A stretch of 64,000 nucleotides of DNA, taken from Eubacteriales bacterium (GTDB taxonomy: Bacteria; Bacillota; Clostridia; Oscillospirales; CAG-272). Location: assembly GCA_045535095.1 (NCBI GenBank), contig JAZSKY010000071.1, positions 2,095 to 66,094 on the forward strand, given 5' to 3'. A model generated the notes under the pieces. The model was not told where the DNA came from and made no database searches. It saw only the letters and a program-made list of their open reading frames with translations. Position numbers and translations under genes: made by a program. Within the stretch, counting starts at the first letter, position 1. Each line of letters begins with the position of its first letter. Shown here one piece after another: positions 45,924 through 64,000 of this stretch.

Positions 45924-45963
45924 GACAAAACAACCCCCGATGCAGAGATCTTCCGCATCGGGG
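45924..45963 (-). terminator. Intrinsic terminator ending the pilus operon
   Basis: Minus strand: CCCCGATGC, an 11-nt loop, GCATCGGGG, then GTTGTTTTGTCTG. Confidence 0.75.
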
Positions 45964-45969
45964 TTTGGC

Positions 45970-46554
45970 TCAATATGCCGTATCGCAAAAAACGATCAGA
46001 TATTCAAACGAATAGACGTTTTTTATGAACAGTGTAAGGGGCGCTTCCTCGCGCGAGAGGGCGTCCTTATTTGCGTGTCTTGCGCTACGGATAGCGCTTA
46101 TTTCAAGGGTGTATCTATTGCCCTCCGTATCGGTATAGATAACAGTATCGCCAAGCGAAAGAGAGCGGTAAAAGTCGAACTGACCCTTCTCTGCGGTCGC
46201 GCCGATCTTCAGAGAGCCGTCGTAAATGCTTCCGTCAAAGAGGCAGGGGTATCTTGATACCCTTCCCCACGATGCACCGACGGGGAGCGCAGCTCCGTAC
46301 TGAGGCATCTCAATAATGCCGACGAAATCGGTTCCGTCCACCGACAGAGCGGACATCGTGTTATCCCGTCTTTCCTCGATGGGCGCTTCCTTCGGCTCGG
46401 GGATAAGTTCGAGCAGAGCGCTCGCGTAGCTCTCTGCTTTTTCAGCGTTTCGCGCGATACCGATCCTCCACGCGGCAAAGGAGATCGCCGCGCAAACGAT
46501 CAGGCACGCTCCGACTGCAACGCAAAGGGTACGGACAGATTTTACAGATTTCAT
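45970..46554 (-). CDS. Sortase-like protein in which the catalytic His, Cys and Arg motifs are not recognisable
   Basis: 194 aa with an N-terminal TM. FVGIIEMPQYGAALPV...GSLKIGATAEKG...GDTVIY...PLTLFIKNV aligns by eye with the class C sortase next door (GYLEIDRIGVELPV...LSAHRG...GDTFRI...CTLFTCTP), but T replaces H and IK replaces TC. Confidence 0.5.
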   Translation of the reverse strand: MKSVKSVRTLCVAVGACLIVCAAISFAAWRIGIARNAEKAESYASALLELIPEPKEAPIEERRDNTMSALSVDGTDFVGIIEMPQYGAALPVGASWGRVSRYPCLFDGSIYDGSLKIGATAEKGQFDFYRSLSLGDTVIYTDTEGNRYTLEISAIRSARHANKDALSREEAPLTLFIKNVYSFEYLIVFCDTAY

Positions 46555-48373: not shown

Positions 48374-48395
48374 CTCCTCTCCGTTATATTTGTAA

Positions 48396-48423
48396 GGGAG
48401 GAAAGGAGATCTCCTCTCCTCCC
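48396..48423 (-). promoter_or_regulatory. Strong hairpin between the major pilin and sortase genes
   Basis: Near-perfect palindrome GGGAGGAAAGGAGATCTCCTCTCCTCCC (14 bp with one mismatch). Its pyrimidine arm is complementary to the sortase SD GGAGAGGAG at 48374-48382. Confidence 0.35.
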
Positions 48424-48444
48424 CTACACGTTTAAAAGGTCAAA

Positions 48445-50235: not shown

Positions 50236-50327
50236 GGTAAAAAATCCTTTCTAAAATAAAATTTTCTTAATTTGTGTGTCGGATCAGTTTGGCGCATAAA
50301 CAGTTTTTACGCCACTTTGCGGAGGCC

Positions 50328-52622
50328 TTACCCCGATGACCTCCTTTCGCGCTTATGCCTCAAGCTGAGTCCGTATATCAGCGGAATTATCATAAACAAA
50401 ATTCCGCAGAATATATAAATCTGATTACCCCTTCCGCCCGTTGCGGGGAGCTCTACTAATTTTCCTGTGTTTTTATTCGTAACCTTCCAGTTTCCGTCCG
50501 ATGCTCCCTTGTACATAAATTTGTCGCTATGAGATGAACCGTATGTATCGTAAAGCAGAAGGTCGGGGTTGTCCGTATAATTCAGGGTTATCCTCATTGA
50601 ATTCTGGGTGTCACCAAAGGTGATATCATAAGGGCGGGGTGCGGCGATCTCACTCAAGGTGTACGTTCCCGGAAGAAGATTTTCAAAGGAAACTCTTCCG
50701 TTTTCGTCCGAGATTATTTCTATTGGTGTAAACGAGTTATCGTTATATTTCGTCAGACTGAACACGGCTCCCTTTATCGCAAAGCCGAAGTCCTCGTCTA
50801 TTTTGGTGAAATGAATATCGTAGAGAAGTCCTCTTACGTACGGGACCTGAAAATTCATACGCAAAGACGTGTTCGGATCGTCAGAAAAATGATAAATAAG
50901 AGTTGCGGATCTGTTCGTCGGATAGACGTGATCGCAGTTTGAAATTGAGCAGGAGGTGTTCAGACACTCAAGACAGCTCTTATCGTTTTTCAGTCTGATC
51001 TTATAAACAAGCTGAGCCGCGTTTCTTTGCCACTCCTCGCCCGAGTCCTCCGACGCGACCAACATCTCCAGATGATTCGGATGCCAGGTCAGCACACCGT
51101 TTTCAAAGGTTGGCAGATCGGTATAGTCGCCTGCGAGAACTCCTACGAACTCGATATTATCGCCCATTGTATCAACAACGCTTTCGAGTACCGTATCTAT
51201 AACCGAGATGCGTTCAAATCCGCTTCCGCCGTTTGAGGTCATCATACTTTCGGTCATCTGAATATATACGGGGTTTGATGCAGAGGTTCCCTGATAGTCC
51301 TTAACGTTCGCAACAACGATTGCCTGAGACGAATCGGGAATCTGAAGCAGTATCTTTCCGTTTTTCATACCCTTATTAGAGTATCTTGTGATTACGCCAC
51401 TTTCAGAGAGCAGCTGGGTCTTACTGTCATTCCAGATCTGTATTACCATATAGAAGCTTGAGCTTGCAGATCCGGTCGGATTTACAAACAGCTGCGAGGG
51501 GTTTCCCTGGCTAAGAGAGGTGATCTCGCCCACCGATCCGTTTGCCGCGGACGCATAGTAGGTTCCGTATTCAAACACCGTATTCCACGAGAGCTTTTTA
51601 TCAATGCTCAGGTACACGAGAAACTCGTTTTCGACAGCGGTCGGAACGACGTTCTTCTGCACGAGCACGTTTTCATTACCGATCTTATGTATCTCCTCGC
51701 GACCAAGATATCCGCCCGAAACGATCTGCCACGAATTCTTATCGGTCGTTGTCAGAAACGAGCCTATAATATCGGTGCTACCGCTACTTTCGAGCATCAC
51801 ATCAACGCTGTCAAGCGAAAGCTCGGGTTGGCGCGAGTCGATATTTACGTATCCGACAATTCTCGGATCGTCTATCGGAAGGATAACCTCGGACACCGCG
51901 TTCTCCCAGTCTCCGCCGACTGCAAGAATCTGCTGTGAGGAGGATGCTGTGACAATTAAAATCTTATCCGCTTTCGTATTTTCGTCGGCATCAAGGAATA
52001 AGATGTTTCCGATCTTACCGACGTTTTCGTCGGGAGACAGGAATATTCCTCTTTCCTCCAGACGCCGAAGCATAACGTACACACCCGAGCTTATCGGAAT
52101 CAATTCACGCGGAATGCCTGCATAATCAAGGCAGAATGCAACGAACATAGCCGACCAGTCTCCATACGGGTTACCGTACCACTGACCGTAGCGCGTAATT
52201 CCCTGCTTTGTAATACCGTCGTCTGCAAGACTGTAATTTCTTTCGCTTTCGGTGTATCCGATCTGCGATCTGGCGATCAGAGCGAGGTTATCCGCCCATC
52301 GCGCGTAATACTGATTTGGCAGGGTTGCCTCCCAGTCCTCCGCCGTCTCCACGTCCGCCTTGGGATCGGAGTAGCAGGAAATGCTGTGAAGATGCTCTAC
52401 CTTTTCGCATATCAGAGTGTCACTCCGGAAGCATTCCTCGCTATGGCGATGCTCGGTATAGCCGCAGGTTGCATCGTTTGCAATCGCAACTCCCGTCCTA
52501 CGCAGATTCCATACGGTTGCAAACGCTATGAGAAGGGACAGTGCCGTAAGTGCGGCTACGATGCGTCGAAAGCGTCTTTTTTCACTATTCAGTTGTACAA
52601 GGTACTGTTCAACGACACCCAT
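50328..52622 (-). CDS. Pilus tip adhesin with an N-terminal Cys/His motif and a CHAP-like module, LPATG-anchored
   Basis: 764 aa. CGYTEHRHSEEC...CEKVEHLHSISC. YGQWYGNPYGDWSAMFVAFCLDYAG. C-terminal GTYTLSEIAAPRPY and LPATGG plus a TM and RHKRERR. Confidence 0.7.
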   Translation of the reverse strand: MGVVEQYLVQLNSEKRRFRRIVAALTALSLLIAFATVWNLRRTGVAIANDATCGYTEHRHSEECFRSDTLICEKVEHLHSISCYSDPKADVETAEDWEATLPNQYYARWADNLALIARSQIGYTESERNYSLADDGITKQGITRYGQWYGNPYGDWSAMFVAFCLDYAGIPRELIPISSGVYVMLRRLEERGIFLSPDENVGKIGNILFLDADENTKADKILIVTASSSQQILAVGGDWENAVSEVILPIDDPRIVGYVNIDSRQPELSLDSVDVMLESSGSTDIIGSFLTTTDKNSWQIVSGGYLGREEIHKIGNENVLVQKNVVPTAVENEFLVYLSIDKKLSWNTVFEYGTYYASAANGSVGEITSLSQGNPSQLFVNPTGSASSSFYMVIQIWNDSKTQLLSESGVITRYSNKGMKNGKILLQIPDSSQAIVVANVKDYQGTSASNPVYIQMTESMMTSNGGSGFERISVIDTVLESVVDTMGDNIEFVGVLAGDYTDLPTFENGVLTWHPNHLEMLVASEDSGEEWQRNAAQLVYKIRLKNDKSCLECLNTSCSISNCDHVYPTNRSATLIYHFSDDPNTSLRMNFQVPYVRGLLYDIHFTKIDEDFGFAIKGAVFSLTKYNDNSFTPIEIISDENGRVSFENLLPGTYTLSEIAAPRPYDITFGDTQNSMRITLNYTDNPDLLLYDTYGSSHSDKFMYKGASDGNWKVTNKNTGKLVELPATGGRGNQIYIFCGILFMIIPLIYGLSLRHKRERRSSG

Positions 52623-52652
52623 AATGCCCTTTCCTTTTAGTGTTTTAAAATC

Positions 52653-53246
52653 CTATGTCTTAAAAACTCCTATGCTCTTAAACGGCCATACTCTGAAAAA
52701 GACCTTTCCGACTATCTGATCCTTCGGAATACAACCGATAAGTGTATTGCGCGAGTCAACAGAGCTTTCGCGCATATCTCCTATTACAAAATACTGCTCG
52801 GGCGGTACCTGATAGGGAAATTCAAGGTCACATTCGCCAAGCGACGCGTTACTGACGTACGGCTCGTCAAGCTTTTCGCCGTTTAAGTAAACGGTGCCGT
52901 CAACGTCTATCTCGATCCAGTCGCCCGGAAGTCCGATAACGCGCTTTATAAGGAGCTTGTTATTCCACGTAAATCCGCAAAGATCTCCGCGTTCAAAACG
53001 CGTTGTCTTTGTGAGAAGAACTATGTCGCCACCCGACAAAGTCGGCTCCATACTCGTTCCCTCTATTTGAAGAACGGGTAAAAGAAGGGTCGCGACAAGC
53101 ACCGCAACTGCGGCAACTACGGTCAAAACGTAGATAGTTCCGCGCAGCGCCTTGTTGTACGCCTTCTGGCGGCGGTACCTTTTTCTCTCGGTTTCGACCT
53201 GCTTTTTAGTGGGGAGCGAGACCTCCCTGTTTTTTCTTTTCAGCAT
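52653..53246 (-). CDS. Type I signal peptidase (pilus-operon associated)
   Basis: 197 aa. EGTSMEPTL (Ser box), LIKRVIGLPGD (Lys box) and GDMRESSVDSR. Confidence 0.9.
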   Translation of the reverse strand: MLKRKNREVSLPTKKQVETERKRYRRQKAYNKALRGTIYVLTVVAAVAVLVATLLLPVLQIEGTSMEPTLSGGDIVLLTKTTRFERGDLCGFTWNNKLLIKRVIGLPGDWIEIDVDGTVYLNGEKLDEPYVSNASLGECDLEFPYQVPPEQYFVIGDMRESSVDSRNTLIGCIPKDQIVGKVFFRVWPFKSIGVFKT

Positions 53247-53252
53247 CTTATC

Positions 53253-53594
53253 TCACCCGTTTTCCGCAAGAGTCTTGGCGTTTTCTACGATCTTTTCAGC
53301 CTCTTCCCTTGCCAGAGCAAGTATTCTTTCCTTTTCGGCATTTGCCTCGTCGAGCATACTTTTTATCTCGCTAAGATACTGATCTGCGGCGCTCTGCGCA
53401 CTTTTGAAGCAGTCGTTGATCTCAAGAACTGCCTCGGCGATATTTCCCGCCTCGCTGATGCGAAGTCGCTTATCTGCAAGCGCGTCCTCAAGGGCGCTTT
53501 TTTCCTCGTTAAGGCTATCCACCTGAAGCTGAAGCTGATATATGATATCTATAAGCTGCGCCCTGCCAAGGCGCCTGAATTCCTTGTCCGTCAT
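53253..53594 (-). CDS. Hypothetical coiled-coil protein
   Basis: 113 aa, heptad-rich (LQLQVDSLNEEKSALEDALADKRL...). It is the first gene after a consensus promoter. I recognise no family. Confidence 0.5.
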   Translation of the reverse strand: MTDKEFRRLGRAQLIDIIYQLQLQVDSLNEEKSALEDALADKRLRISEAGNIAEAVLEINDCFKSAQSAADQYLSEIKSMLDEANAEKERILALAREEAEKIVENAKTLAENG

Positions 53595-53627
53595 ATTACA
53601 AACGTCCTTTCTGCTTTTTATCCTATT

Positions 53628-53656
53628 ATTATATCACCTTCGTCATTTTTTGTCAA
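53628..53656 (-). promoter_or_regulatory. Consensus sigma-A promoter of the pilus operon
   Basis: Minus strand: TTGACA (53656-53651), a 17-nt spacer, then TATAAT (53633-53628). It lies about 34 nt upstream of ATG 53594. Confidence 0.75.
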
Positions 53657-53676
53657 CCAAAATCGAAAAAAGTGAC

Positions 53677-54849
53677 TTAAAATTCCAGGGTATCGACCTT
53701 ATCAAGAAGCATGCCGAGCATTTCCTTGCATCTTGCAATTCTTGCAGGGCTATCCGCCTCGTCGGGGTGACGGAGAGAGCGGCGGAGTATTCTTGTGTAT
53801 CCGATTACCTTTGCCTTCTCGAGCACCGCGCGGCAGAGCTTATCATCCGACGTGCCAAGGTACATTCCAAGCGCGGTATTAAAGAATTTTTCGGACGTTT
53901 CGTGAGTATATCCGAAGAATCTCTCGGTCGTGCTATGATCGTGCTCTGCGTAGCCGATAGCCGCGTTGAACATCGAGCCGATCTCGAAAATGGGGTGTCC
54001 CATACAAAGGGTATCCATATCAATAAGAAGCCCCTCGCCGTTTTGTACCATAACGTTATTTGTGTGATAATCGCCGTGAAGGAGGGTGTTCTGCTTCGGA
54101 ATCGCCTCTATCAGCGCGCGAAGCTTGTCGCCCTGCTCCTTCGGAAGATGGGGAGATACGAATTCTGCCCAACCGAGCGCGATCTCCTTCATATCGGGGA
54201 CCTCTCCGTCCTCGACCTCGACCGCGTGTATGCTACGGAGCATATCAACGTAATATTTTGCCGCCTCGGATATATCGTCCTGATTATCCCTTATAAGCTT
54301 CGTTACACTAACTGCGTTCAAAAGCTCGGTAACGGTGCCGTATCCCTCGTCAACTCTGACGATTCCGTACGGAATTGCGGTATTTATGCCAAGAATGAAG
54401 GCGCGTCTTGCGTTTTCTCTTTCCTGCTTTATCTCAGGGAGGGCGTCCTTTGCGAAATAAATCTTGAGTATGGTTTCGTCGTCATATCTGTAAACCGCTC
54501 CGTTTGCTCCCTTCGCGATAAACTCACAGCCCTCGACGCTCATTTTTCTATACGCCTTTTCGATAGTCAGCATATCGGTAAAGCCTGTCATATCAAAAAC
54601 CTCGTAAACGTCGGGAGCGACGTTTATAATGGCGAGCTTCGGCTCTTCCTTGCGAAGTCTGAGTATCACACGCAGTCCTGCGCTCGACACATATTCAAGC
54701 TTATCGGCATCGAGAACGGTATGCTTTCCGGGATTTTCGCTCTTGATACTGAATATCATTTCCTCTGCCTCGCCGGCATTAGTGGCGTCTATTCTTCCCT
54801 CAAGCGCGATATACAAAATGCTTTTATCTATTCGGTATGTAATATTCAT
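53677..54849 (-). CDS. STAS domain fused to an APH/choline-kinase-type phosphotransferase domain
   Basis: 390 aa. The N-terminal ~100 aa are STAS (LEYVSSAGLRVILRLRK...VYEVFDMTGFTDMLTIE). The remainder is kinase-like (GANGAVYRY..., LLHGDYHTNNVMV, LIDMDT). Confidence 0.8.
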   Translation of the reverse strand: MNITYRIDKSILYIALEGRIDATNAGEAEEMIFSIKSENPGKHTVLDADKLEYVSSAGLRVILRLRKEEPKLAIINVAPDVYEVFDMTGFTDMLTIEKAYRKMSVEGCEFIAKGANGAVYRYDDETILKIYFAKDALPEIKQERENARRAFILGINTAIPYGIVRVDEGYGTVTELLNAVSVTKLIRDNQDDISEAAKYYVDMLRSIHAVEVEDGEVPDMKEIALGWAEFVSPHLPKEQGDKLRALIEAIPKQNTLLHGDYHTNNVMVQNGEGLLIDMDTLCMGHPIFEIGSMFNAAIGYAEHDHSTTERFFGYTHETSEKFFNTALGMYLGTSDDKLCRAVLEKAKVIGYTRILRRSLRHPDEADSPARIARCKEMLGMLLDKVDTLEF

Positions 54850-55418
54850 TATTTGTCTTCCTTTCCAAAAACAAGACCCGTGAGCGTGTTATATTCGATC
54901 CACGCGGACGTATCCGAGAGACGGGAGGTGAGATGCGCAACCGAGCGGTAATACCACGCCTGCTCGGAGGCATCCTTCTGATTGAATCTCTGCCACATCT
55001 TCTCTCCCTCGACCTTGAAATCGCGATAGATAGCGCGCATATTTGCGAGCTTATCGCCAAGCCAAAGGGCTAAAACGTCGGTATCGTCTGTGTTTTTGAG
55101 AATTTCGAGAGTCTCCTCCTTGCGTATTCTCCAAGTTTCCGAGGGATCGATCTCTTCTCTTTTGTTCTCGGTCTCTGCCGCGACAAGCTCTCTTACGCGA
55201 CTGCCGAATTTCTCCTCGATCTCATCAAGAGTGATTCCCGCATCCTCTACAACGTCGTGCAGAGCGGCGGCGGCTATAACTCTCTGATCGCAGGTGATAG
55301 TTCCTACGATAACTGCCGCCTCCATAGGGTGAAGAATATAAGGGGCGTCACTTTTCTTACGTCGCATTCCGTCGTACGCCTTAACCGCAAATACGACTGC
55401 CTCGCTTGCAAGCTCCAT
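54849..55418 (-). CDS. HD-domain protein resembling RelA/SpoT-type (p)ppGpp hydrolases (small alarmone hydrolase-like, HD_4)
   Basis: 189 aa. PYILHPMEAAVIV and AAALHDVVEDAGITLDEIEEKFGSRVRELV. TAATG overlaps at both ends. Confidence 0.7.
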   Translation of the reverse strand: MELASEAVVFAVKAYDGMRRKKSDAPYILHPMEAAVIVGTITCDQRVIAAAALHDVVEDAGITLDEIEEKFGSRVRELVAAETENKREEIDPSETWRIRKEETLEILKNTDDTDVLALWLGDKLANMRAIYRDFKVEGEKMWQRFNQKDASEQAWYYRSVAHLTSRLSDTSAWIEYNTLTGLVFGKEDK

Positions 55419-55708
55419 TACTCGATCACCAGAATATCGGCAAAGCCGGTCATTTCAAATACTTCCATAACAAGCTCGCAAACGTTTGTGAGCTTCATCG
55501 ACGATTTGAGCTTTTTCTGTGCGGAGAGGAGGACGCGGAGTCCTGCGCTCGATACGTATTCAAGTCCTGCGCAGTCGATAGTGAGACTGTCTATGCCGCA
55601 GATATGTGAGTTAATAAAGCCGTCAAGCTCGGGGGACGTAACTGTATCAAGGCGTCCGATAACGCTGACCTTCAGCGCGGACGCGTTCTTTTCAAACTTA
55701 ATTTCCAT
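55418..55708 (-). CDS. STAS-domain anti-sigma-antagonist-like protein
   Basis: 96 aa. LEYVSSAGLRVLLSAQKKL...VMEVFEMTGFADILVIE. Confidence 0.88.
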   Translation of the reverse strand: MEIKFEKNASALKVSVIGRLDTVTSPELDGFINSHICGIDSLTIDCAGLEYVSSAGLRVLLSAQKKLKSSMKLTNVCELVMEVFEMTGFADILVIE

Positions 55709-55719
55709 TATTTTTCTCC

Positions 55720-56319
55720 TTATGCAAACTTTTTAACTATAACGATGCTTACACAGCTTCCCTTTACGCCTACGATAACGTCGTCGGAGGCGGAAGCGAT
55801 CACAGACTTTTCAAGCTCGTCCCATTCTTCTGCCTTTTCGGTGGGGCTTACAGAGCTTCTGTACCGGTCAAGACTCCAGTAGTAGGAGAAGTCCATACCG
55901 CCCGAGAATCCCGATGCCATACGCGCGTGGTCGGTCGATGCGGCAATAGCCTCCATACTCTCGCTATCAAGGAAAAGGTCCTCAACTGCCGAGCGGATCT
56001 TTCCGACGATTCCGACAGCGGCGGCGTTTTTCTTATTCTTTGAAACCTTGATAAGCTCTTCCTTCTTCTCTGCGGTCATCTCGGAGAGCTTTATGGAAAC
56101 ACTCAGAGTGCATACGCCGTTTTCATACTCGAACCACATCTCGCCGTCAAAATCGTCAACGATGCTCGGGAGCATTCCGTCGGTCTCCTCGCAGAGCAGA
56201 CGAAGCTGAAGTGTCTGCTTATGATTTAGTCCGATATACGCCGCAAATCTCTCGCTTTCGTCGAGAATTGCCGCAAGGTCCTTAGTGCCTTTTTCTATTT
56301 TGCATACGTTTGATTTCAT
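55720..56319 (-). CDS. Hypothetical protein inside the partner-switching operon
   Basis: 199 aa, soluble, with an RBS. Its N-terminal ~80 aa loosely resemble the start of RsbW/SpoIIAB-type HATPase proteins (LQLRLLCEETDGML...GVCTLSVSI), but no ATP-binding boxes are visible. Confidence 0.6.
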   Translation of the reverse strand: MKSNVCKIEKGTKDLAAILDESERFAAYIGLNHKQTLQLRLLCEETDGMLPSIVDDFDGEMWFEYENGVCTLSVSIKLSEMTAEKKEELIKVSKNKKNAAAVGIVGKIRSAVEDLFLDSESMEAIAASTDHARMASGFSGGMDFSYYWSLDRYRSSVSPTEKAEEWDELEKSVIASASDDVIVGVKGSCVSIVIVKKFA

Positions 56320-56340
56320 AAAAAGTCTCCCTTTCCCGTC

Positions 56341-56637
56341 TTATTCAATATCGAAAATGTCGGCAAATCCGGTCATTTCAAAAACTTCCATAACCTCTTC
56401 GCAAACGTTTCTAACCTTCATTGAGCCTATCTTCTGCATCTTCTTCTGTGCCGAGAGAAGAACGCGAAGTCCTGCGCTCGATATGTACTCTACACCCTTG
56501 AGATCAAGAATGAGATTTTTGGTGTCGCCTATATCCTCGTTTATCGTTTTATCAAGAGCAGGAGCGGTAACGGTATCGAGTCTGCCTACGATCTCGATGA
56601 TCGTCTCCTGCGCGTTTTTTATTATTTCTATTGTCAT
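56341..56637 (-). CDS. STAS-domain anti-sigma-antagonist-like protein
   Basis: 98 aa. VEYISSAGLRVLLSAQKKM...VMEVFEMTGFADIFDIE. Confidence 0.88.
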   Translation of the reverse strand: MTIEIIKNAQETIIEIVGRLDTVTAPALDKTINEDIGDTKNLILDLKGVEYISSAGLRVLLSAQKKMQKIGSMKVRNVCEEVMEVFEMTGFADIFDIE

Positions 56638-56650
56638 TTTCCTTGTCTCC

Positions 56651-59485
56651 TTATATCTTTTTGATCATAGTCAGAATGTTTTCGCCGTTTTCGTACGCGT
56701 AGCTGAGGGTATCCATGGTTTTCTTCGTGATGAAGATACCGAGTCCGCCTATCTCGCGCTCGTCTGCAGAGAGAGTAGTGTCGGGATCGGGCTTCTTCAG
56801 AGGATCGAAGGGGATTCCCCTGTCTGCCATACGGAAGGTGATATTTCGGCTTTCACCGTCGAAGGCAATAGAGATATCCACGTCGCCTTCTCCGCCCTCG
56901 TAAGCATAGTGAGCAACGTTGACAAATATTTCTTCGATCGCAACGCATATTGCAGTCTGCGCCTTCATAGGACATTCAAATCCCGAGAGCGTTTCCTCAA
57001 CAAAGGAAATAACGTCGCCGAGTGCCTCGGTCTTCGCCGGGAACGTTTTATTTATCATTTGCTCACCTCCTTTTTTGGGTTTAAAATCAAGCATAAGCAT
57101 CGTAATATCGTCAAACTGCGGAGATTCTCCGACAAATTCGTCAATATTTGCTTTAAGCATAGGTAAAAGCTCGGTCGCTTCCGTGGAAGCGTTTTTATTC
57201 ATAAAGTCAAGGAGTCTCTCCTCACCATAGAGCTTGTTTTCGGTGTTGGTCGCCTCGGGCACGCCGTCTGTGTAGAGGAAGATCCTATCTCCCGCCTCAA
57301 GCGTTATCTCGCCCATTTTGTAGCAGATGCCCTCCATACCTGCAAGAACGAAGCCTGCGCGTGTCTTGAGGTATTCAAACGAGCCGTCCGCACGCTTCAG
57401 AAGGGGCGGATTATGTCCTGCGTTTGCAAACTGTACCTTTCCGCTCGAAAGATCGAGAATGCCCATCCAAGCGGTGACGAACATACCCGACTCGTTATTT
57501 TCGCAAAGCTTTTCGTTCGCCTTGGTGAAAATATCGTTTACCGCCATACCGCTTTCTGCAAGGTCCTTGATGATCGTTTTCGCGGTCATCATAAACATTG
57601 CGGCAGGTATTCCCTTGCCCGAAACGTCGGCGGCAAGGAATGCTACCGTATTATCGCTCAGCTTATAGAAATCGTAGAAGTCTCCTCCGACCTCCTTTGC
57701 GGCGATCATTTCGGCATAAATGCGGTACTCATCGTCCTTCGGGAAGTTGGTCGGGAGTGCGGAAAGCTGTATCTGCTTTGCGTACTCAAGCTCCTTGTCG
57801 ATACGCGCCGCCGCCTCTGCAATATAGCGCTTGAGGGTTGCAACGGTGGAGTTGATGTCGTCCGAAAGCGAGGAAAATTCCTCGTTCGAGCGAACGTTTA
57901 CCTCTACGCTGAGGTCACCCTCGGTGATACGTCCGAGCGTATCGTTTATTTTCTTTAAGTTATTGATGATGACTCTCTTTATGAGTATGTAGATGAACAC
58001 GAACAGCGCGGCAAATATAAGCACCTGCATAAAGACGCTCGTATAAAGAGATGCGTCGCGCATGAACATTGCCTCGGACTCGGGCATTGCCGCGATAATA
58101 CAGTAGCCTTCAACGAACTTGAAAACATACATATATTTTTCGCTCTCGGCGCTGTTTGTGTCCACAATATCCGCAGGATAAAGGTCGGTTGCGGTACTAC
58201 CCGTCTCCATTTCGAGGGAAGGAGTGATTCCGATAGTGGAAATGTGACGTCCCGAATACTCGTTATCAATTACAAGATTGAGCTTATCGTCGCAAACGGC
58301 AACGAGGCCGCCCGTTCCGACGTGTCTGTTCTTGGTGACGTCAACCACGAACTCGTTGAGCATTGCGTGGAACTGCTCCGCGTCGTATCCGACCTGAATG
58401 AATCCGCCGCCCTGAAGTCTTACCGCCGCGTATTTTCTCCATTCGGACTCGTCTTTTCCGCGTCGGCTATACTCCTGAACGAAGGAGTCTTGTATTTTGA
58501 GCATATCAACGAATTCCTTTGACTGCTCTTTACTGTTCATATCGTAAACGCCTATAACGTCATCTTCATTTGAGTCTATTATAATGCCGCTATCGTCAAC
58601 TACGTTGATCTCCTCGACACCGTACTTCTGAACGAGAAGGTCGAGATCGCTAAATCCGCTCTCGTACTCGATCTTAACCTTTTCGGCAATATCGAGAAGC
58701 TGTGCGTCCGATTTTTCCTTGATGTCGGTCTCGACGTCGTCCATTGCGGCGGTAAAGACCTCCTTGGTCTCGATCTTTACCATTCTGTTCTGAAGAATAT
58801 AGGTGAAGGAGCTCGTTACCAAATATGCAATAACGATACAGAGAAGAAGCCATCTCTGGAAGGTGTTTGCGATTCTTTCGCTTCCCTTTTTACGGGTGAA
58901 GCGCTCGTGACTGAGAAGGGATACTATGATGATGGCGCATCCGACAGCCACAGCGTTTCCGAGTATCATCGGGAAGGTTGCACCTTTGACAAATTCAAAG
59001 GCGTATGAGGAATCCTTCATATTCGTCAAGAATATAAGGATCATGTGGATAACCTCGCAGACAACGGCGATACAAACTCCGTATCCCCACGTCGGCTTCT
59101 TGTTATCAAACATAAGCTTACGAAGTCCTGCCGCCATAAAGCCTGCGAGAACTGTCGCTACGCTACACGCAAGGCGCGTATATTCTCCTCCGCCCCAGAA
59201 TACCGAGAACCAGCGGTAAAGTCCGCCGATAAATCCCGAGATTATACCTGCGGGCGCGCCGAAGATAAGTCCTGCCGAAAGGGGCGCCGCATCACGGACG
59301 TTCACCGTCGTTCCGAGCCAGTCCACGCCATAGCTTGACGCAAAGGCTGAAACGCCGCCGAAAAGAAGTCCGATAATTATCTGCTTTACCGCGTAAGGCA
59401 GCTTCTTTAAGGGTGTGTACTTATCCGCAATATATACTGCAAGGACAAGAAGACAGTTAATTAATACCGGAATTGCAAGTCTCAT
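56651..59485 (-). CDS. Membrane sensor with 5TMR-LYT-like N-terminus, extracytoplasmic domain, HAMP, PP2C (SpoIIE) phosphatase and C-terminal RsbW-type HATPase kinase domain
   Basis: 944 aa. VNVRDAAPLSAGLIFGAPAGIISG (LytS-type TM module). HAMP around ITEGDLSVEVNVRSNEEF. PP2C GGDFYDF...ADVSGKGIPAAMFM...LYTDGVPE...FDDITMLM. The last ~135 aa are HATPase_c_2-like (AIEEIFVNVAHYAY...DRGIPFDP...GGLGIF). Confidence 0.85.
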   Translation of the reverse strand: MRLAIPVLINCLLVLAVYIADKYTPLKKLPYAVKQIIIGLLFGGVSAFASSYGVDWLGTTVNVRDAAPLSAGLIFGAPAGIISGFIGGLYRWFSVFWGGGEYTRLACSVATVLAGFMAAGLRKLMFDNKKPTWGYGVCIAVVCEVIHMILIFLTNMKDSSYAFEFVKGATFPMILGNAVAVGCAIIIVSLLSHERFTRKKGSERIANTFQRWLLLCIVIAYLVTSSFTYILQNRMVKIETKEVFTAAMDDVETDIKEKSDAQLLDIAEKVKIEYESGFSDLDLLVQKYGVEEINVVDDSGIIIDSNEDDVIGVYDMNSKEQSKEFVDMLKIQDSFVQEYSRRGKDESEWRKYAAVRLQGGGFIQVGYDAEQFHAMLNEFVVDVTKNRHVGTGGLVAVCDDKLNLVIDNEYSGRHISTIGITPSLEMETGSTATDLYPADIVDTNSAESEKYMYVFKFVEGYCIIAAMPESEAMFMRDASLYTSVFMQVLIFAALFVFIYILIKRVIINNLKKINDTLGRITEGDLSVEVNVRSNEEFSSLSDDINSTVATLKRYIAEAAARIDKELEYAKQIQLSALPTNFPKDDEYRIYAEMIAAKEVGGDFYDFYKLSDNTVAFLAADVSGKGIPAAMFMMTAKTIIKDLAESGMAVNDIFTKANEKLCENNESGMFVTAWMGILDLSSGKVQFANAGHNPPLLKRADGSFEYLKTRAGFVLAGMEGICYKMGEITLEAGDRIFLYTDGVPEATNTENKLYGEERLLDFMNKNASTEATELLPMLKANIDEFVGESPQFDDITMLMLDFKPKKGGEQMINKTFPAKTEALGDVISFVEETLSGFECPMKAQTAICVAIEEIFVNVAHYAYEGGEGDVDISIAFDGESRNITFRMADRGIPFDPLKKPDPDTTLSADEREIGGLGIFITKKTMDTLSYAYENGENILTMIKKI

Positions 59486-59497
59486 TCGGTCACCTCG

Positions 59498-60457
59498 TTA
59501 TTTAAGCAGCAGTATCAGATCCCAGACGTAGCTGGCAATCAGATTTCCGATAATACCGAGTGCCATAAGCAGAACCATATATATAAGCATACTGCTCTTG
59601 CTTATCGAGTTTTTCGCGATATTATAGTAGAAGCTGAAATGTCCCTGCATATTATCCTCGCGGCTCTGCTGCCACTGATAGGTTATAACGTCCTCGCTGT
59701 CGTAGGATGCGGGAAGATATTCCCTATACAGATTCTCCTCAAGGCGTCTGATACGGTAGCAGCCTGCATCGTTAAGCTCATAGCTTTCGTCAATAGAGAT
59801 GGTAATTACCGCCTTTTTGAGCTTCTGACGGTGGAAAGATCCTATTCGTGTGATCTCCTCGGGCAAAAGTCTCGACTCGTTGATACGAACCGAATATCCG
59901 TATTTTTCGGAAATTACCGGAGTTGTGAGAAGGTCTCTGAGTCTGTCTATCGCGTTTCCGACACTTGCGCGCGATCTGAAGATGCCGTCCAGAGTCTTAT
60001 GGGGCATACGCCAGATGAAATACGCTTCGTCGTTGTCGAGATACTCGCCGAGTCCCTCAAGGTCAAAGGTGAGAAGTGTGCCGTCTGCAAGAGACCTCGT
60101 TTCGTATTTGAGTGTGCTTATATGTACTATATCCACCGTTTTGCCGTTATAAGCAATTTCGGAGGTGTGTATATTTTTCTTAAAGTCAACAATACACGCC
60201 GCGCTGAAGGTCGCCTGCAATATTTTAGTATCGTTAAAAAGCAAGGAGAGATCTTCTATTTCGTCACACGAAACAGTAAACGGGATATAAACGCTGACGC
60301 ATTTACTCGCCTTTACTCCGCGTATGCGCAGAGCGAAATCGACGTAGCTTTTTCCCTTGGGATTTAACCAGTCGTTGATGTAAACGGTGCTCGTATCGTC
60401 ACCGTCAACCCAGACAGCCCAGCCGTCGTCGGCGTATTTTTTATATTTTTTAGCCAT
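59498..60457 (-). CDS. Hypothetical C-terminally membrane-anchored protein, first gene of the partner-switching operon
   Basis: 319 aa. I recognise no motif. There is a single C-terminal TM (MLIYMVLLMALGIIGNLIASYVW). Its stop lies 12 nt before the GAGGTGA-ATG of the sensor gene. Confidence 0.6.
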   Translation of the reverse strand: MAKKYKKYADDGWAVWVDGDDTSTVYINDWLNPKGKSYVDFALRIRGVKASKCVSVYIPFTVSCDEIEDLSLLFNDTKILQATFSAACIVDFKKNIHTSEIAYNGKTVDIVHISTLKYETRSLADGTLLTFDLEGLGEYLDNDEAYFIWRMPHKTLDGIFRSRASVGNAIDRLRDLLTTPVISEKYGYSVRINESRLLPEEITRIGSFHRQKLKKAVITISIDESYELNDAGCYRIRRLEENLYREYLPASYDSEDVITYQWQQSREDNMQGHFSFYYNIAKNSISKSSMLIYMVLLMALGIIGNLIASYVWDLILLLK

Positions 60458-60472
60458 TTCCTTTGCTCCCTT

Positions 60473-60742
60473 CTATATTATTTTTCTTCCTGCAACGTAT
60501 TTTGCAGTTACTTTCTTATCGTCAAGTCCGAGATAAACGGCGCGCTCCATTCTCTCTGCGAGAGTCAGACTCTGCACCTGCTCAAGCACGCTATCGTCAA
60601 GAACGACGGCGTCAAATTCATAGCCCCCCTCAAAGCTTCCGACCTTTCCGAAGAATGCTCCGCCTCCCTTGGTGGCAAGGTAGAACGCTTCCGAAAAGAC
60701 GAGAGGGCGATACGCCTCGTCAACTTGATGAAATGTCTGAAA
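60473..60742 (-). pseudogene. 3'-terminal remnant of an amidohydrolase (guanine-deaminase/chlorohydrolase-like) gene
   Basis: My translation is FQTFHQVDEAYRPLVFSEAFYLATKGGGAFFGKVGSFEGGYEFDAVVLDDSVLEQ...KYVAGRKII*. This is a typical C-terminus for that superfamily. The frame is closed by TAA at 60745-60743, and there is no start codon or N-terminal ~340 aa. Confidence 0.65.
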
Positions 60743-60749
60743 TTACTTT

Positions 60750-61088
60750 TTACGCCTTCTTTGCAGAAGCGATCTTCTGAACAAACAAAGCGATAAGCAG
60801 AACAACGAACAGAGCCGCGCCTATCTTGTGAACGATCGAGAGAGCGGCAATTCCGTGAGACGCCTTGATGATAATTCCGCTGATGAGCGCGACTAAGTAG
60901 CAAGCTCTCATAATGATCTCGAGTGCGGGAATCTTCCAGCTCTTTTTAGTCAGAACGGTGTACGCCACGAGAACGAGAACGCCAACGAGCGAGAGTGCGA
61001 TGTGTGCGGTCATTCCGGTTGCTCTGAGTAAGAAAAGCAGTACGCCTATCGCGAGAAGAACGGGGGTGAAAATAAGGTCCTTTTTCAT
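60750..61088 (-). CDS. Hypothetical 4-TM membrane protein
   Basis: Start re-set to MKKDLIFTPVLL (ATG 61088) after AAAGGAG. 112 aa. Confidence 0.55.
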   Translation of the reverse strand: MKKDLIFTPVLLAIGVLLFLLRATGMTAHIALSLVGVLVLVAYTVLTKKSWKIPALEIIMRACYLVALISGIIIKASHGIAALSIVHKIGAALFVVLLIALFVQKIASAKKA

Positions 61089-61107
61089 AATTTTAACTCC
61101 TTTTATT

Positions 61108-61791
61108 TTATTTATCAGTTTTTTTCTTGCCGAGTCTGTCAAGTCCGAGGAAGATAAATCCTACGAGAACGAACGCGGCAGCGAGAATACCGATCCACAT
61201 AAGAACACCGTTCACGCCCTGCGTATCAAGATTTACGAAGAAATAGGGATAGATCAGGGGTGTTGTGGAGGTGGGAATCAGTATAGAAGAGTCAAATCTC
61301 AAAATGATCGCCTGAATGAGAAGGAAGATCACGTAAGCAAGAGGAAACGCTATCGACGAGACAGGATAATACCACTTGCATTTTCCACGCTCGTAGAAGA
61401 GAAACCAGTCTGCTATGTACATAATGGGGAGAACCACGTGGAAAATAAGACTTCCTATACGCCAGTTAAGCTGGGGATCGCGTCCCTCTGCGCCTGCAAG
61501 CATAATGTTGAACACAAGGAAAGTGAGCAAAATGCCGAGCATTCCGATAAATTTGAGTATAGGCGCCGCGCTGACGAAGCTGTCCGACGGCTTCTTTACC
61601 GTCTGAATAAGAGCCGCGAGCATAACGCCGATACAAAGGAAATTACTGATGTTTGTGAAGTGTACGTAGAAGTCCCAGCGTATCTGATTTATATTGTCAA
61701 ATATACCAAGACTTGCGATAGTTCCGACAAATCCCAAGGTGAGATATACGGTCTGATAAATGAGCTGTGCCGTTCTGTTTTTGATCATTTT
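61108..61791 (-). CDS. Pr6Pr/FAR-17a-like integral membrane protein
   Basis: Start re-set to MIKNRTAQLIYQ (ATG 61791) after AAAGGAG. 227 aa, 6 TM segments. HFTNISNFL motif. Confidence 0.55.
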   Translation of the reverse strand, partial: KMIKNRTAQLIYQTVYLTLGFVGTIASLGIFDNINQIRWDFYVHFTNISNFLCIGVMLAALIQTVKKPSDSFVSAAPILKFIGMLGILLTFLVFNIMLAGAEGRDPQLNWRIGSLIFHVVLPIMYIADWFLFYERGKCKWYYPVSSIAFPLAYVIFLLIQAIILRFDSSILIPTSTTPLIYPYFFVNLDTQGVNGVLMWIGILAAAFVLVGFIFLGLDRLGKKKTDK

Positions 61792-61871
61792 TTTCTCCTT
61801 TCGTAAAACAAAAAACACTTTCCCTATGATACTGTCCATTCTAACACGAAAGCTGTGACAAACCTCTTACA

Positions 61872-61902
61872 AATAAAAGAAAAAGCCGTCAAAAAGACGG
61901 CT
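61872..61902 (-). terminator. Intrinsic terminator after the response-regulator gene
   Basis: Minus strand: AGCCGTC-TTTTT-GACGGCT followed by TTTTCTTTTATTT. Confidence 0.8.
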
Positions 61903-61915
61903 TATTTTAATAAAA

Positions 61916-62698
61916 TTATTTATTTCTTTTTCTTTCCCAAAGAAGTCCGCAGGTGTTCTCTGCCCAGCTGTACTGATACATATACTCGCCAAGAAATTCG
62001 GGCTTTCCGCATTTCAGGTAATTATAATAATCACAGTCGATCTTCTCGGGATTTATCGAATAGAGATAATTGTTTCTCTCGAAAACGCCTCCCATTCCGA
62101 CAGAGTCGAGCGTCTGTCTGAGGTCGCGGAAGAGCTGGTGGATATAGTTATGATTTTTCTGCTCCTCGTCATTCTCCCAAAGCGCAACTCCGATCTCGGC
62201 AACCGTGACTCCCGCTCCGTTTCTGTCGATCAGAAAGGCAAAAAGCTCCTTTGTCTTTGAGCGCTTGAAGGTCAGCTTTTCTCCGTTTGCATACACCTCG
62301 AAAGTTCCGAAGCAGGACGCAACGAGCGGCTTTTCCTTGCGGCGTATTCCCTTGATATTGTCGATCTCTGCCTGAACGTCAGAGGCGGAAACCGGCTTCA
62401 TAAGATAGCCTGACGCGTGAAGCCTGAACGCAGGAATGGCATATTCCTCGTATCCCGTGCAAAAAACGATCTTACAGTCGGGACAGAATGAGACTATCTT
62501 CTCGGCGAGCGCAAGTCCGCCCATTCCTCGCATATTTATATCCAAAAATGCGACGTCTATCGGGTTTTCCCTGACAAAGCCGAGCGCTTCCTCACAGTCG
62601 GAAAATTTACTTAGCTCGGTAATATCGTCCGACGCCTCAATAGCTGACGCAAGTGCTCTCAGCATAAGTATCTCGTCATCAACTGCGATTGCGATCAT
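61916..62698 (-). CDS. Two-component response regulator (receiver plus winged-helix/SARP-like output)
   Basis: 260 aa. IAIAVDDE...DVAFLDINMRGMGG...KPV. The C-terminus FEVYANGEKLTFKRSKTKELFAFL is OmpR/SARP-like. Confidence 0.8.
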   Translation of the reverse strand: MIAIAVDDEILMLRALASAIEASDDITELSKFSDCEEALGFVRENPIDVAFLDINMRGMGGLALAEKIVSFCPDCKIVFCTGYEEYAIPAFRLHASGYLMKPVSASDVQAEIDNIKGIRRKEKPLVASCFGTFEVYANGEKLTFKRSKTKELFAFLIDRNGAGVTVAEIGVALWENDEEQKNHNYIHQLFRDLRQTLDSVGMGGVFERNNYLYSINPEKIDCDYYNYLKCGKPEFLGEYMYQYSWAENTCGLLWERKRNK

Positions 62699-62701
62699 TT
62701 T

Positions 62702-64000
62702 TCACACCTCCTTGGGAATAGTTATAGTTACCTTCGTGCCAACGTCCTTCGTGCTTTCAATTTCAAGCTCGCCGTTGACCATCGCCTTGAGTCGTCCGCG
62801 AATGTTACGTATTCCAACGTGTGCTCGCTCGTCAAGAAGGACGCTCGTATCAAAGCCTACTCCGTCGTCCTCTACCGAAACGCAGTAGCTCGTCTCCGTT
62901 TCGTAGGAGACGACGCGGATAGTGCCTCCTCTCGGGAGCTTCATAAGTCCGTGCTTTATAGCGTTTTCGACTATCGGCTGAATGGTGAGCGCAGGAATGT
63001 GGAAGTCCACCGAATTCATCTCAAACGAGAAGGTCATATCGGGGAAACGGACGTTTTCAATGCTGATATAGTGGCGCACGTGCTCCATTTCCTGAGACAT
63101 AAGGATCGGCTTCGGATTATCAAGCTCTCCGAAATTCCCCCTTAAATACCGGGCAAAATTATGCACAAGCTCGCCTGCCTTAGGCGGATCTATGCTACAA
63201 AGCTGCTCAATGCTTCCGAGCGTATTATATATGAAATGGGGACGTATCTGGCTCATCATAGTAGAGATTCTGCTCTCTGTGAGCTTCGCGTTCAGAACGA
63301 GCTTTTCGGTCTCAAGCTCCTTTGCCTTCGCTATTGCGTTGATACTGCGCGGTATGATTCTCAGAAGCGCAAGTATCGCAACTATAAAGAAGAGTATAAA
63401 CACGTAGGCAGAGACAAGTCCGCCCTTCCAGAGTCCGACGTCGGTCATAACGGTGTCAACTCCAAAGGCGGCGATAGGAAGCGTGAGTCCGACGTATAGC
63501 CAGCGCTCCCTTCCCTTTGCAAGGAAAATTTCTTTCAAAATACATCCGAGTAGTGCGATAGCGGACGTCGCCTGCGCTATTACCCACCAGAGCCAGAGGT
63601 CATAGAAAAGAAGATCTGTAAAGATGGGGAGCATAAGAAGGATCGCGTCACACGCCGCAAGAAGAGAGACGGTCGCCGTGCCAAGCGGCTTTGTGTTCTT
63701 TAACAAATGCACGATAGCTATCGAAAGAAATAGCATATAGAACATCATCGAGCATCCGAGAATGATCGTGTTCGACACAACCGATTCGTTTTTGAAGGAC
63801 GTTCCCCTTGCGCTATACGAGAGGTATGTTCCCGCAAAGAGAATTACCGCGCCAAGCACCCAGATTATCTTACTGTTCTTTATATGAATAAGGATTGAAA
63901 AGAGGGCTGTTCCGAGGAACACGAAGGAAACGATAACGAACAGAAGTCCGACGTCTCTTTGCGAGTCTCCGCTTGCAAGGACCCCTTTTTCAAACTCAAA
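62702..64000 (-). CDS. Sensor histidine kinase of the LytS/YehU (His_kinase, PF06580-type) class. The N-terminus lies outside the window.
   Basis: QIRPHFIYNTLGSI H-box and an HATPase C-terminus (NAIKHG...VEDDGVGF). The frame remains open upstream of the track's GTG at 63922 to the window edge (…LFVIVSFVFLGTAL). Confidence 0.85.
   Translation of the reverse strand, partial: FEFEKGVLASGDSQRDVGLLFVIVSFVFLGTALFSILIHIKNSKIIWVLGAVILFAGTYLSYSARGTSFKNESVVSNTIILGCSMMFYMLFLSIAIVHLLKNTKPLGTATVSLLAACDAILLMLPIFTDLLFYDLWLWWVIAQATSAIALLGCILKEIFLAKGRERWLYVGLTLPIAAFGVDTVMTDVGLWKGGLVSAYVFILFFIVAILALLRIIPRSINAIAKAKELETEKLVLNAKLTESRISTMMSQIRPHFIYNTLGSIEQLCSIDPPKAGELVHNFARYLRGNFGELDNPKPILMSQEMEHVRHYISIENVRFPDMTFSFEMNSVDFHIPALTIQPIVENAIKHGLMKLPRGGTIRVVSYETETSYCVSVEDDGVGFDTSVLLDERAHVGIRNIRGRLKAMVNGELEIESTKDVGTKVTITIPKEV

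Follow-up and report, generated by a model that had tools for sequence, protein, structure and literature searches.

Partner switching is textbook sigma-factor control, and few of its non-sigma outputs are understood. The locus described here raises the question of what such a switch may govern when enzymes are encoded beside it. It lies in a 64,000-nucleotide stretch of a Eubacteriales genome (GenBank contig JAZSKY010000071.1, positions 2,095 to 66,094 of the forward strand; hereafter the window) and consists of seven minus-strand genes, g1 to g7. In that order they encode an orphan protein, a membrane sensor with a PP2C phosphatase and an RsbW-type serine kinase domain, a free STAS protein, a second orphan, a second free STAS protein, a hydrolase of the HD_4 family, and a fusion of a STAS domain to an APH-fold kinase (STAS-APH). 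A sequence-only reading had described these genes as an operon in which one kinase/phosphatase pair acts on three paralogous STAS antagonists and the outputs are enzymatic. We conclude, with moderate confidence, that the locus is a sigma-independent module of the partner-switching type, in which reversible phosphorylation of STAS serines would relay a membrane signal.

The STAS-APH protein and its conserved partners

Profile searches against Pfam and NCBIfam, the check that the sequence-only reading had proposed, returned every domain it had named, including HD_4 and APH, and the seven genes stand in the list of open reading frames, at 53677-60457, exactly where it had placed them. The STAS-APH protein g7 stands at the centre of a large and unstudied family: when 1.84 billion representative sequences were searched exhaustively, 647 clusters at 50% identity (E≤1e-30) were obtained, nearly all of about 390 aa and matching over their full length. 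Nine residues (S56, T88, G89, G114, K129, H258, D260, N265 and D277) are invariant in 35 STAS-APH sequences of 30-52% identity. The kinase motifs of g7 are complete (Gly-rich loop, Lys129, HGDYHTNN and IDMD), with HGDxHxxN and ID[ML]D kept in 79/79 orthologues, and the APH-fold domain appears to be catalytically intact. The nearest named family, TIGR02172, scores 115.6 bits against a cut-off of 228.2, so that g7 is not a member by the curated threshold. Among solved structures, the remote matches that follow hygromycin-B kinase are YihE, YtaA and choline kinase; as a guide to the substrate of g7, all of these matches proved too remote to inform.

The three STAS domains share the motifs EY(I/V)SSAGLRV(L/I)L and EVF(E/D)MTGF(A/T)D, as the alignment bears out. 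The second serine of the SSAGL motif aligns with the first serine of DSSGL in SpoIIAA, which is its phospho-acceptor Ser58, and the corresponding residues of g3, g5 and g7 are the predicted phospho-acceptors. The two free STAS proteins are 61% identical to each other, and the SSAGLR motif of g3 occurs in every orthologous copy detected.

The operon's only kinase/phosphatase is indeed a single protein, g2, as had been proposed. Its LytS-type 5TMR-LYT receptor module is followed by a segment of ~245 aa between hydrophobic helices at residues ~211-232 and 478-500, and then by a HAMP-like linker that falls under the Pfam cut-off (PF00672, E 5.9e-4; 20.6 bits against 25). BtsS, a LytS-type kinase with a 5TMR-LYT module, is described as binding pyruvate (PMC10653868). 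Among solved structures, the phosphatase half is closest to Rv1364c (3KE6, 3e-16), and RssB, SiaA and SpoIIE are also among its PDB relatives; the HATPase domain has weak NCBIfam matches to RsbW and SpoIIAB. Both the PP2C metal-binding motifs (GGDFYD, DVSGKG, (Y)TDG and DDIT) and the N, G1 and G2 boxes of the kinase (EExFxN, DxGxxF and GGxG) are kept in 54/54 orthologues, and both domains look catalytically intact.

Fusions of the Rosetta-stone type place an RsbW-type domain and STAS-APH in one chain. HATPase_c_2 lies at the C-terminus of STAS-APH in three metagenomic loci (L117, L132 and L120) and in P0370 and P0371, which belong to 90% clusters of 14 and 20 members, and at the N-terminus in P0362; in two further loci (L089 and L124) a stand-alone RsbW-type kinase gene adjoins the g7 homologue. 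Since the RsbW-type domain is recurrently fused to STAS-APH, the g7 STAS domain is predicted to be the substrate or partner of such a kinase, which in the window would be g2, and we regard these fusions as the strongest evidence for that assignment. Two other fusions are known from single sequences: P0403 (668 aa) joins STAS-APH to HD-CE, shows no internal start remnant and looks like a true fusion, and P0390 (516 aa) carries a YezG-like immunity-protein domain.

Linkage points to the same partners. Scanning one genome per GTDB species gave 116 relatives of g7, of which 80 were kept as a close set; all come from metagenome-assembled genomes of uncultured Clostridia, Oscillospirales or other, of the animal and human gut (57-81% identity). 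A distant set comprised 80 metagenomic loci (46-54% identity). Of the close loci, 49 had enough flanking sequence for linkage counts, and in these g7 was accompanied by g2 in 49/49, by a free STAS gene in 48/49, by g1 in 43/49, by HD_4 in 36/49 and by g4 in 12/49. This arrangement of g2, g7 and free STAS is far beyond chance, and because of the co-occurrence we take the sensor, the free STAS protein and STAS-APH to be the invariant core. The survey, a check that the sequence-only reading had proposed, also confirmed that STAS-APH co-occurs with HD_4 and with the PP2C-HATPase sensor.

The seven-gene operon, which had been taken as the unit, turned out to be the largest version of this smaller system. 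Among 60 loci holding g2, g3 and g7, the commonest order was g2-g3-g6-g7 (36/60); the arrangement of the window, g2-g3-g4-g5-g6-g7, occurred in only 10/60, as did the bare g2-g3-g7, and the remaining 4/60 read g2-g3-g4-g5-g7, with no HD gene. g5 is present together with g4 in 14/60. The first gene, g1, is clade-specific, and HD_4 and the g4-g5 pair are accessory, optional modules. In the distant set the surroundings are more varied, yet these partners come back: a shorter PP2C(-HATPase) sensor lies directly upstream of STAS-APH in 12/63 loci and a free STAS gene in 8/63, and one locus (L115) reduces the module to its minimum, with STAS, a 5TMR-LYT-PP2C-HATPase sensor and STAS-APH.

Some relatives depart from these orders by additional genes or additional copies. 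In L021 (8795-9301) and L031 (9418-9885) an extra multi-pass membrane protein of 155-168 aa, without a Pfam family, is encoded between g5 and g6/g7, and gaps of similar size occur in L036, L041 and L069. Two genes separate the g4-like/STAS pair from the PP2C sensor in L117 (1855-3670); by eye they encode a VanZ/glyoxalase-like membrane protein and a VanX-type D-Ala-D-Ala dipeptidase, which hints at a cell-wall connection in that lineage. Two STAS-APH loci were found per assembled genome in JAFOBC01 (L005 and L073), JAZLBM01 (L018 and L059) and CALAXC01 (L019 and L039). The JAFOBC01 copies share 81% and 59% identity with g7, and each is accompanied by a sensor and a STAS gene of its own. The presence of two loci in one genome suggests paralogous, insulated systems.

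Alternating hydrolases beside the kinase

The protein encoded by g6 appears, from its motifs, to be a bona fide small alarmone hydrolase (SAH)-type protein. It matches the hydrolase part of TIGR00691 (3.3e-21) and carries the RelA/SpoT hydrolase motifs (ILHPM, ALHDVVED and LGDKLANMR) without a synthetase domain; HP, HDxxED and DKLxN are kept in 57/57 orthologues. Its best PDB relatives are stand-alone HD proteins (7QOE, 1.8e-23; Lmo0812, 4YF1, 1.5e-18; and 7QOC), behind which come Rel/SpoT hydrolase domains and MESH1. By its family, g6 might hydrolyse (p)ppGpp or (p)ppApp. The gene immediately upstream of g7 is an HD_4 gene in 56/74 close loci and in 18/63 distant ones, and one locus (L088) consists of a bare HD_4 and STAS-APH pair.

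In 17/80 distant loci, the gene directly downstream of g7 encodes a PHP-domain protein of ~290 aa, and this never occurs together with HD_4. The closest solved relatives of the PHP protein are 3E0F (6e-29), RNase AM (7UG9) and Cv1693 (2YB1), the last of which we take to be a 3',5'-nucleoside bisphosphate 3'-phosphatase. The product complex of Cv1693 holds AMP and phosphate (PMC9410882). When the 47 distant loci that could be evaluated on both sides were tallied, 16 had HD_4 only, 11 had PHP only, none had both and 20 had neither. The kinase-fused form of STAS-APH occurs with PHP in 9/11 loci and with HD_4 in 0/16, and one sequence, P0375 (705 aa), is a STAS-APH-PHP fusion.

Since two unrelated families of hydrolases that remove nucleotide 3'-phosphoryl groups alternate beside the same kinase, the hydrolase is likely to be part of the output. 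The earlier proposal that a hydrolase and a kinase are the outputs therefore survives in part: the coupling of HD_4 to STAS-APH held up in both sets of loci, and specificity for (p)ppGpp is doubtful, because HD_4 is replaced in some loci by an unrelated PHP phosphoesterase. This replacement implies a role broader than (p)ppGpp hydrolysis, and the hydrolase is probably not specific to that alarmone. More generally, the alternation of HD_4 and PHP suggests that kinase and hydrolase act on one nucleotide-type substrate.

A more specific form of this idea, unlikely as it stands and offered tentatively, is that STAS-APH is a nucleotide kinase making a 3'- (or 2'-) phosphorylated nucleotide signal, with HD_4 or PHP as the dedicated degrading hydrolase. 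It is prompted by the mutual exclusion, as neighbours, of two unrelated families that are both known to strip 3'-phosphoryl groups from 5'-phosphorylated nucleotides, together with the single STAS-APH-PHP fusion. If true, the pair would be a previously unrecognised second-messenger or alarmone-like synthase and hydrolase, gated by STAS phosphorylation that a membrane PP2C/RsbW sensor controls. The parallel would be with RelA/SpoT enzymes, whose synthetase and hydrolase domains oppose each other, but the kinase fold would be a different one.

The APH-fold domain could instead be a protein kinase, like YihE/SrkA or the CotS-type coat kinases, in which case the switch would feed a kinase cascade and the hydrolase would be a separate parallel output, for instance one that lowers (p)ppGpp. 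APH-fold and eukaryotic-like kinases form one superfamily; besides small-molecule kinases, YihE, YtaA (CotS-like) and the SteC effector kinase are weak matches of the family profile, and alarmone hydrolases are among the closest solved relatives of g6. Nevertheless, the best matches of the APH region are small-molecule kinases (hygromycin-B kinase, choline kinase and APH(3')), and two phosphohydrolase families that never co-occur, with the STAS-APH-PHP fusion, better fit an opposed pair working on one substrate. We consider a protein-kinase output improbable.

The sigma-factor question and the orphan proteins

Could the switch nonetheless control a sigma factor? Pfam found no sigma domain in the seven products, in line with the sequence-only reading. 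When 160 related loci (1.88 Mb) were searched by tblastn with four sigma factors (SigF, SigB and RpoE, and the window's own SigA as positive control), one sigma-70-family match was obtained, 5 kb from g7 and on the opposite strand. No linked sigma factor was detected in the other 159/160 loci, with the proviso that extracytoplasmic function sigma factors are poorly detected by these queries, and a linked sigma factor as the partner was rejected on this basis. The only sigma gene in the window encodes a 369-aa sigma-70-type protein, lies 43 kb away beside a dnaG-like gene and by eye is the housekeeping sigma.

There remains a canonical partner switch with an unlinked sigma factor, which would be sequestered by the g2 HATPase domain or an RsbW-like g4 until freed by unphosphorylated STAS; in that case the genes for kinase and hydrolase would be passengers or secondary targets. 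The weak matches of the g2 C-terminus to RsbW and SpoIIAB models are compatible with this, as is the resemblance of the g4 model to the anti-sigma factors SpoIIAB, UsfX and RsbW; Rv1364c, the closest solved relative of g2, is reported to bind SigF in vitro (PMC7693655), and only 64 kb of the genome is visible. Set against these points, the 160 related loci gave a single sigma-70-family match that does not adjoin g7, and the sole sigma factor of the window is of apparent housekeeping type and 43 kb off. Moreover, the RsbW-type domain is recurrently fused to STAS-APH and is membrane-tethered here, which points to STAS-APH as its partner, and g4, which most operons do without, has neither the N-box Asn nor the G1 and G2 boxes. 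An unlinked sigma factor is therefore unlikely in our view.

The orphan g4 bears on this question through its predicted fold. It has no match in Pfam (relaxed scans included), NCBIfam or PADLOC, and no PDB sequence match by profile search. Its AlphaFold2 model is of moderate quality (pLDDT 60.7, pTM 0.62, residues 90-143 disordered), and Foldseek searches with this pLDDT 60.7 model returned the anti-sigma kinases SpoIIAB and UsfX as 9 of the top 10 PDB matches, with RsbW at rank 11 (probability 0.96-1.0, E 5e-3 to 5e-2, TM 0.48-0.62). Homology to HATPase_c_2 at the sequence level was rejected, hhalign against an alignment of g2-type kinases giving a probability of <1% both with a shallow g4 alignment and with one deepened by homologues of 34-37% identity. 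In the best local alignment, the helix LRLLxEExxGM, invariant in g4, pairs with AIEEIFVN, the N-box helix of the kinase. The other invariant motifs of the family are NxAAxGxxGxxR and WDELExS, and its motifs include no N-box Asn, no G1 DxGxG and no G2 box. If the GHKL fold is right, g4 would not be an active kinase, because the ATP-binding motifs are absent. Without exception, the distant homologues (34-37% identity) are directly followed by a free STAS gene. From the model, the proposal that g4 is a kinase-dead, RsbW-like partner of g5 stands at roughly even odds. The earlier claim that no anti-sigma partner is encoded thus holds for classical anti-sigma domains, none of which Pfam detected in the seven products, and is insecure in its wider form, because g4 may itself have an RsbW/SpoIIAB-like fold.

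For g1, no family was found in Pfam, NCBIfam or PADLOC. Its AlphaFold2 model has a pLDDT of 57 overall, reaches 80-92 for residues ~40-155 and is poor beyond residue 155. It suggests a beta-sandwich-like N-terminal domain and a hydrophobic C-terminal helix (residues ~287-318) that may serve as a membrane anchor, and Foldseek found no credible fold match, its hits being noise (TM <0.25). Where g1 occurs in the close loci it is directly upstream of g2, and it is absent from the distant set.

A proposed mechanism, its precedents and the setting of the operon

We regard the following as the likeliest mechanism. A ligand or membrane cue would be sensed by the 5TMR-LYT and extracytoplasmic parts of g2 and passed through the HAMP-like linker, shifting the balance between the PP2C and RsbW-kinase activities. 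The kinase would phosphorylate, and the phosphatase dephosphorylate, Ser56 of g7 and Ser54 of g3 and g5, and the phospho-state of the g7 STAS domain would decide whether the APH-fold kinase joined to it is active. The free STAS proteins g3 and g5 would be competitors for both activities and for RsbW-domain binding; such competition, the partner-switching element of the scheme, would give a switch-like response, and g4 may be an optional kinase-dead RsbW-like partner for g5. As output, the APH-fold kinase would act on a substrate that is probably a small molecule. The co-transcribed HD_4 hydrolase would oppose or complement it; its target would be that phospho-metabolite or a linked one, most probably a nucleotide with a 3'-phosphoryl group. 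Lastly, g1 may be a lineage-specific, membrane-tethered accessory of the sensor.

Several observations weigh against this scheme. Phosphotransfer, STAS control of the APH domain and free-STAS competition, like every other catalytic and regulatory step in it, are what we infer from the observed domain content, residue conservation, linkage and fusions. The solved kinases nearest to g7 are very distant, hygromycin-B kinase matching with an E-value of 2e-6 over ~70 residues. The partner genes of the window are absent nearby in 11/30 distant loci, several of which are kinase fusions or carry PHP, so the STAS-APH protein can apparently work with unlinked partners. The HD_4 gene is absent from about a quarter of close operons, and is therefore not essential to the switch; the exclusivity of HD_4 and PHP has a Fisher p of 0.0085, uncorrected for phylogeny. 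An HD_4-STAS-APH fusion, P0448, was discarded as strong Rosetta-stone evidence: it is a single sequence whose junction resembles read-through of adjacent genes, keeping the HD C-terminus, a 12-residue spacer and a normal MNV start, and it is evidence of HD_4/STAS-APH adjacency only. The fold assigned to g4 comes from a moderate-confidence model without sequence-profile support, and a consensus scan found no convincing promoter upstream of g1.

That the genes form no system at all, a STAS/PP2C/RsbW cassette merely lying beside a housekeeping alarmone hydrolase and a resistance-type phosphotransferase, might be argued from the frequency of resistance genes in the APH family, the occurrence of SAHs as orphan genes (PMC9765508) and the operons that lack HD_4, but is strongly disfavoured and in our view very improbable, given that STAS and APH are fused in hundreds of clusters with an invariant phospho-acceptor serine, that the TAATG junctions are translationally coupled, that g2 and g7 co-occur in 49/49 loci, that kinase-domain fusions recur, and that g7 scores far below the NCBIfam resistance models (17 bits against a cut-off of 205 for APH(3'), 16.7 against 325 for APH(6)).

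How unusual is such a module? The sequence-only reading had set the lack of a sigma factor against the classical scheme. Such a lack is not unusual: sigma-free partner switches, some with enzyme outputs, are already described. They include SypE/SypA, BtrUVW, RbaV and HmpUVW (PMC8256260), SiaABCD (PMC8457831) and HsbA-HsbD (PMC5085249), in the latter two of which the antagonist controls a diguanylate cyclase, and the sigma-free CapK/CapS (PMC13373217, EMBO J 2026). Fusions of PP2C to an RsbW-type kinase that act on STAS are likewise on record, SypE acting on SypA (PMC8256260) and Rv1364c on its own STAS domain (PMC7693655). The switch logic is thus not new. Judged by domain content, the new part would be the output, a STAS-gated APH-fold kinase coupled to a nucleotide 3'-phosphohydrolase. 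In the literature we found no description of a STAS domain fused to an APH-fold kinase, of its control module or of a link to SAH or PHP enzymes, and no account in which an SAH or PHP enzyme is tied to a STAS-kinase or PP2C/RsbW module; the view that the architecture lacks a characterised precedent stands, no paper on it having been found.

The RsbU/RsbV/RsbW-sigmaB and SpoIIE/SpoIIAA/SpoIIAB-sigmaF switches of Bacillus subtilis have in common with the present locus a PP2C phosphatase, a GHKL RsbW-type kinase and a STAS protein with the DSSGL-equivalent serine. Here, by contrast, no sigma factor is linked, kinase and phosphatase form a single membrane sensor, an enzyme is fused to one of the three STAS domains, and the output would be enzymatic rather than transcriptional. 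SypE of Vibrio fischeri likewise unites kinase and PP2C in one protein that acts on a STAS serine (Ser56 of SypA) with no known sigma output (PMC8256260), but it is cytoplasmic with a central receiver domain, its target SypA is a free STAS protein that controls biofilm formation, and neither a STAS-enzyme fusion nor a hydrolase is involved. Rv1364c of Mycobacterium tuberculosis has the same PP2C-then-kinase order, both activities being directed at STAS (PMC7693655); it is however soluble, contains its own STAS domain and is tied to SigF regulation, whereas g2 is a 5TMR-LYT/HAMP membrane sensor whose presumed STAS substrates are separate proteins, one of them kinase-fused. Pfam finds neither a receiver nor a STAS domain in g2, which marks it as a distinct architecture and not an orthologue of SypE or Rv1364c.

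In SiaABCD and HsbR/HsbA/HsbD of Pseudomonas aeruginosa it is again an enzyme, not a sigma factor, that the antagonist regulates (PMC8457831, PMC5085249). The membrane HAMP-PP2C protein SiaA (NF038263) is the best NCBIfam match of g2, but g2 is not a SiaA orthologue, since it scores 67.3 bits against a cut-off of 700. Those systems use a separate kinase protein and a separate GGDEF enzyme; here the APH-fold kinase is covalently fused to STAS, and Pfam detects no GGDEF protein in the operon. CapK/CapS, too, pairs an anti-sigma-type kinase with a STAS-type substrate for a non-sigma output (a DNA-binding repressor or activation of a VapC nuclease), but has no PP2C, is triggered by single-stranded DNA and serves anti-phage immunity. 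As for the hydrolase, g6 shares with the SAHs Mesh1, Lmo0812 and 7QOE/7QOC a single HD_4 domain with all hydrolase motifs. Known SAHs are encoded by orphan genes or serve as antitoxins against toxic alarmone synthetases (PMC9765508), and g6 differs from these in belonging to a STAS-kinase operon.

The seven genes are tightly packed, as had been noted (Table 1): the gaps from g1 to g5 are 12, 13, 21 and 11 nt, and 1-nt TAATG overlaps join g5 to g6 and g6 to g7. Twenty nucleotides past the g7 stop lies a perfect sigma-70-type promoter (TTGACA-17 nt-TATAAT with an upstream TG; 53628-53656, minus strand), which faces the next gene and on that account marks g7 as the end of the unit. That gene (53253-53594) encodes a 113-aa coiled-coil protein with weak DivIVA-like matches and is followed by a signal peptidase I gene (52653-53246), also downstream of the promoter. 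No terminator was found between g7 and the promoter. Two other candidates were set aside: Rfam gave no riboswitch or other RNA element at E≤0.1 in 52000-64000, a span that takes in the operon together with the gap preceding g1, and PADLOC matched none of the seven proteins to an anti-phage defence system.

Table 1. Positions of the seven genes and of their domains, motifs and predicted phospho-acceptors in the window
Feature	Position	Strand	Description	Basis
g1	59498-60457	minus	319 aa, orphan; first gene of the conserved unit	
g2	56651-59485	minus	944 aa, membrane sensor with PP2C phosphatase and RsbW-type serine kinase	
g2 5TM-5TMR_LYT	58922-59389	minus	LytS-type membrane receptor module, residues 33-188	Pfam PF07694 6.7e-24
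g2 HAMP-like linker	57830-57982	minus	residues 502-552	Pfam PF00672, sub-threshold
g2 SpoIIE/PP2C	57083-57655	minus	phosphatase, residues 611-801	Pfam PF07228 7.6e-50
g2 HATPase_c_2	56660-57043	minus	RsbW/SpoIIAB-type serine kinase, residues 815-942	Pfam PF13581 6.9e-24
g3	56341-56637	minus	98 aa, free STAS protein	Pfam STAS 1.5e-17; NCBIfam anti-sigma-factor antagonist 2e-20
g3 Ser54	56476-56478	minus	predicted phospho-acceptor, codon	motif alignment
g4	55720-56319	minus	199 aa, orphan	
g5	55418-55708	minus	96 aa, free STAS protein	Pfam STAS 1.4e-11
g5 Ser54	55547-55549	minus	predicted phospho-acceptor, codon	motif alignment
g6	54849-55418	minus	189 aa, single-domain HD_4 hydrolase of SAH type	Pfam HD_4 2.2e-19, residues 7-142
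g7	53677-54849	minus	390 aa, STAS-APH fusion	
g7 STAS	54553-54843	minus	STAS domain	Pfam STAS 8.1e-12
g7 Ser56	54682-54684	minus	predicted phospho-acceptor of the STAS domain, codon	motif alignment
g7 APH	53953-54528	minus	APH-fold kinase domain	Pfam APH (PF01636) 1.1e-19
g7 HGDYHTNN	54055-54078	minus	catalytic motif	
g7 IDMD	54013-54024	minus	kinase motif	

In the 290-nt gap upstream of g1, a short frame on the minus strand (~60508-60650; …GKVGSFEGGYEFDAVVLDDSVLEQVQ…) resembles by eye an amidohydrolase-type C-terminus, perhaps as the remnant of a gene. In L002 this gap is occupied by an unrelated gene of 222 aa, which makes it a variable spot at the operon boundary. Farther upstream (60750-63922), a response regulator/histidine kinase pair is encoded together with small membrane proteins of 130 aa and 243 aa; Pfam has no family for the larger one. 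Close relatives often carry homologues of these genes upstream of the operon, and the distant set is almost devoid of them (a weak response-regulator match in L136 only); they probably reflect synteny and are not part of the system. On the downstream side, 45970-52622 appears, by eye from the translations, to be a sortase-dependent pilus or adhesin cluster, with proteins of 764 aa and 596 aa that end in an LPxTG-like motif and membrane anchor, and three sortase-like genes. Two low-GC stretches (24001-28000 and 38001-46000; GC 0.35-0.42 against ~0.48 elsewhere) carry apparent glycosyltransferase and polysaccharide-synthesis genes and may be a horizontally acquired surface-polysaccharide locus.

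The family is large (species-representative genomes yield at least 116 relatives in the close clade alone) and is abundant in Clostridia of the ruminant and human gut. Given the fusions and the alternative hydrolases, the hypothesis can be tested directly on purified proteins. If the model is true, it would add a new class of output to PP2C/RsbW/STAS signalling and give an orphan group of small alarmone hydrolases its first functional context, and it could expose a new nucleotide-based signal in dominant gut anaerobes.

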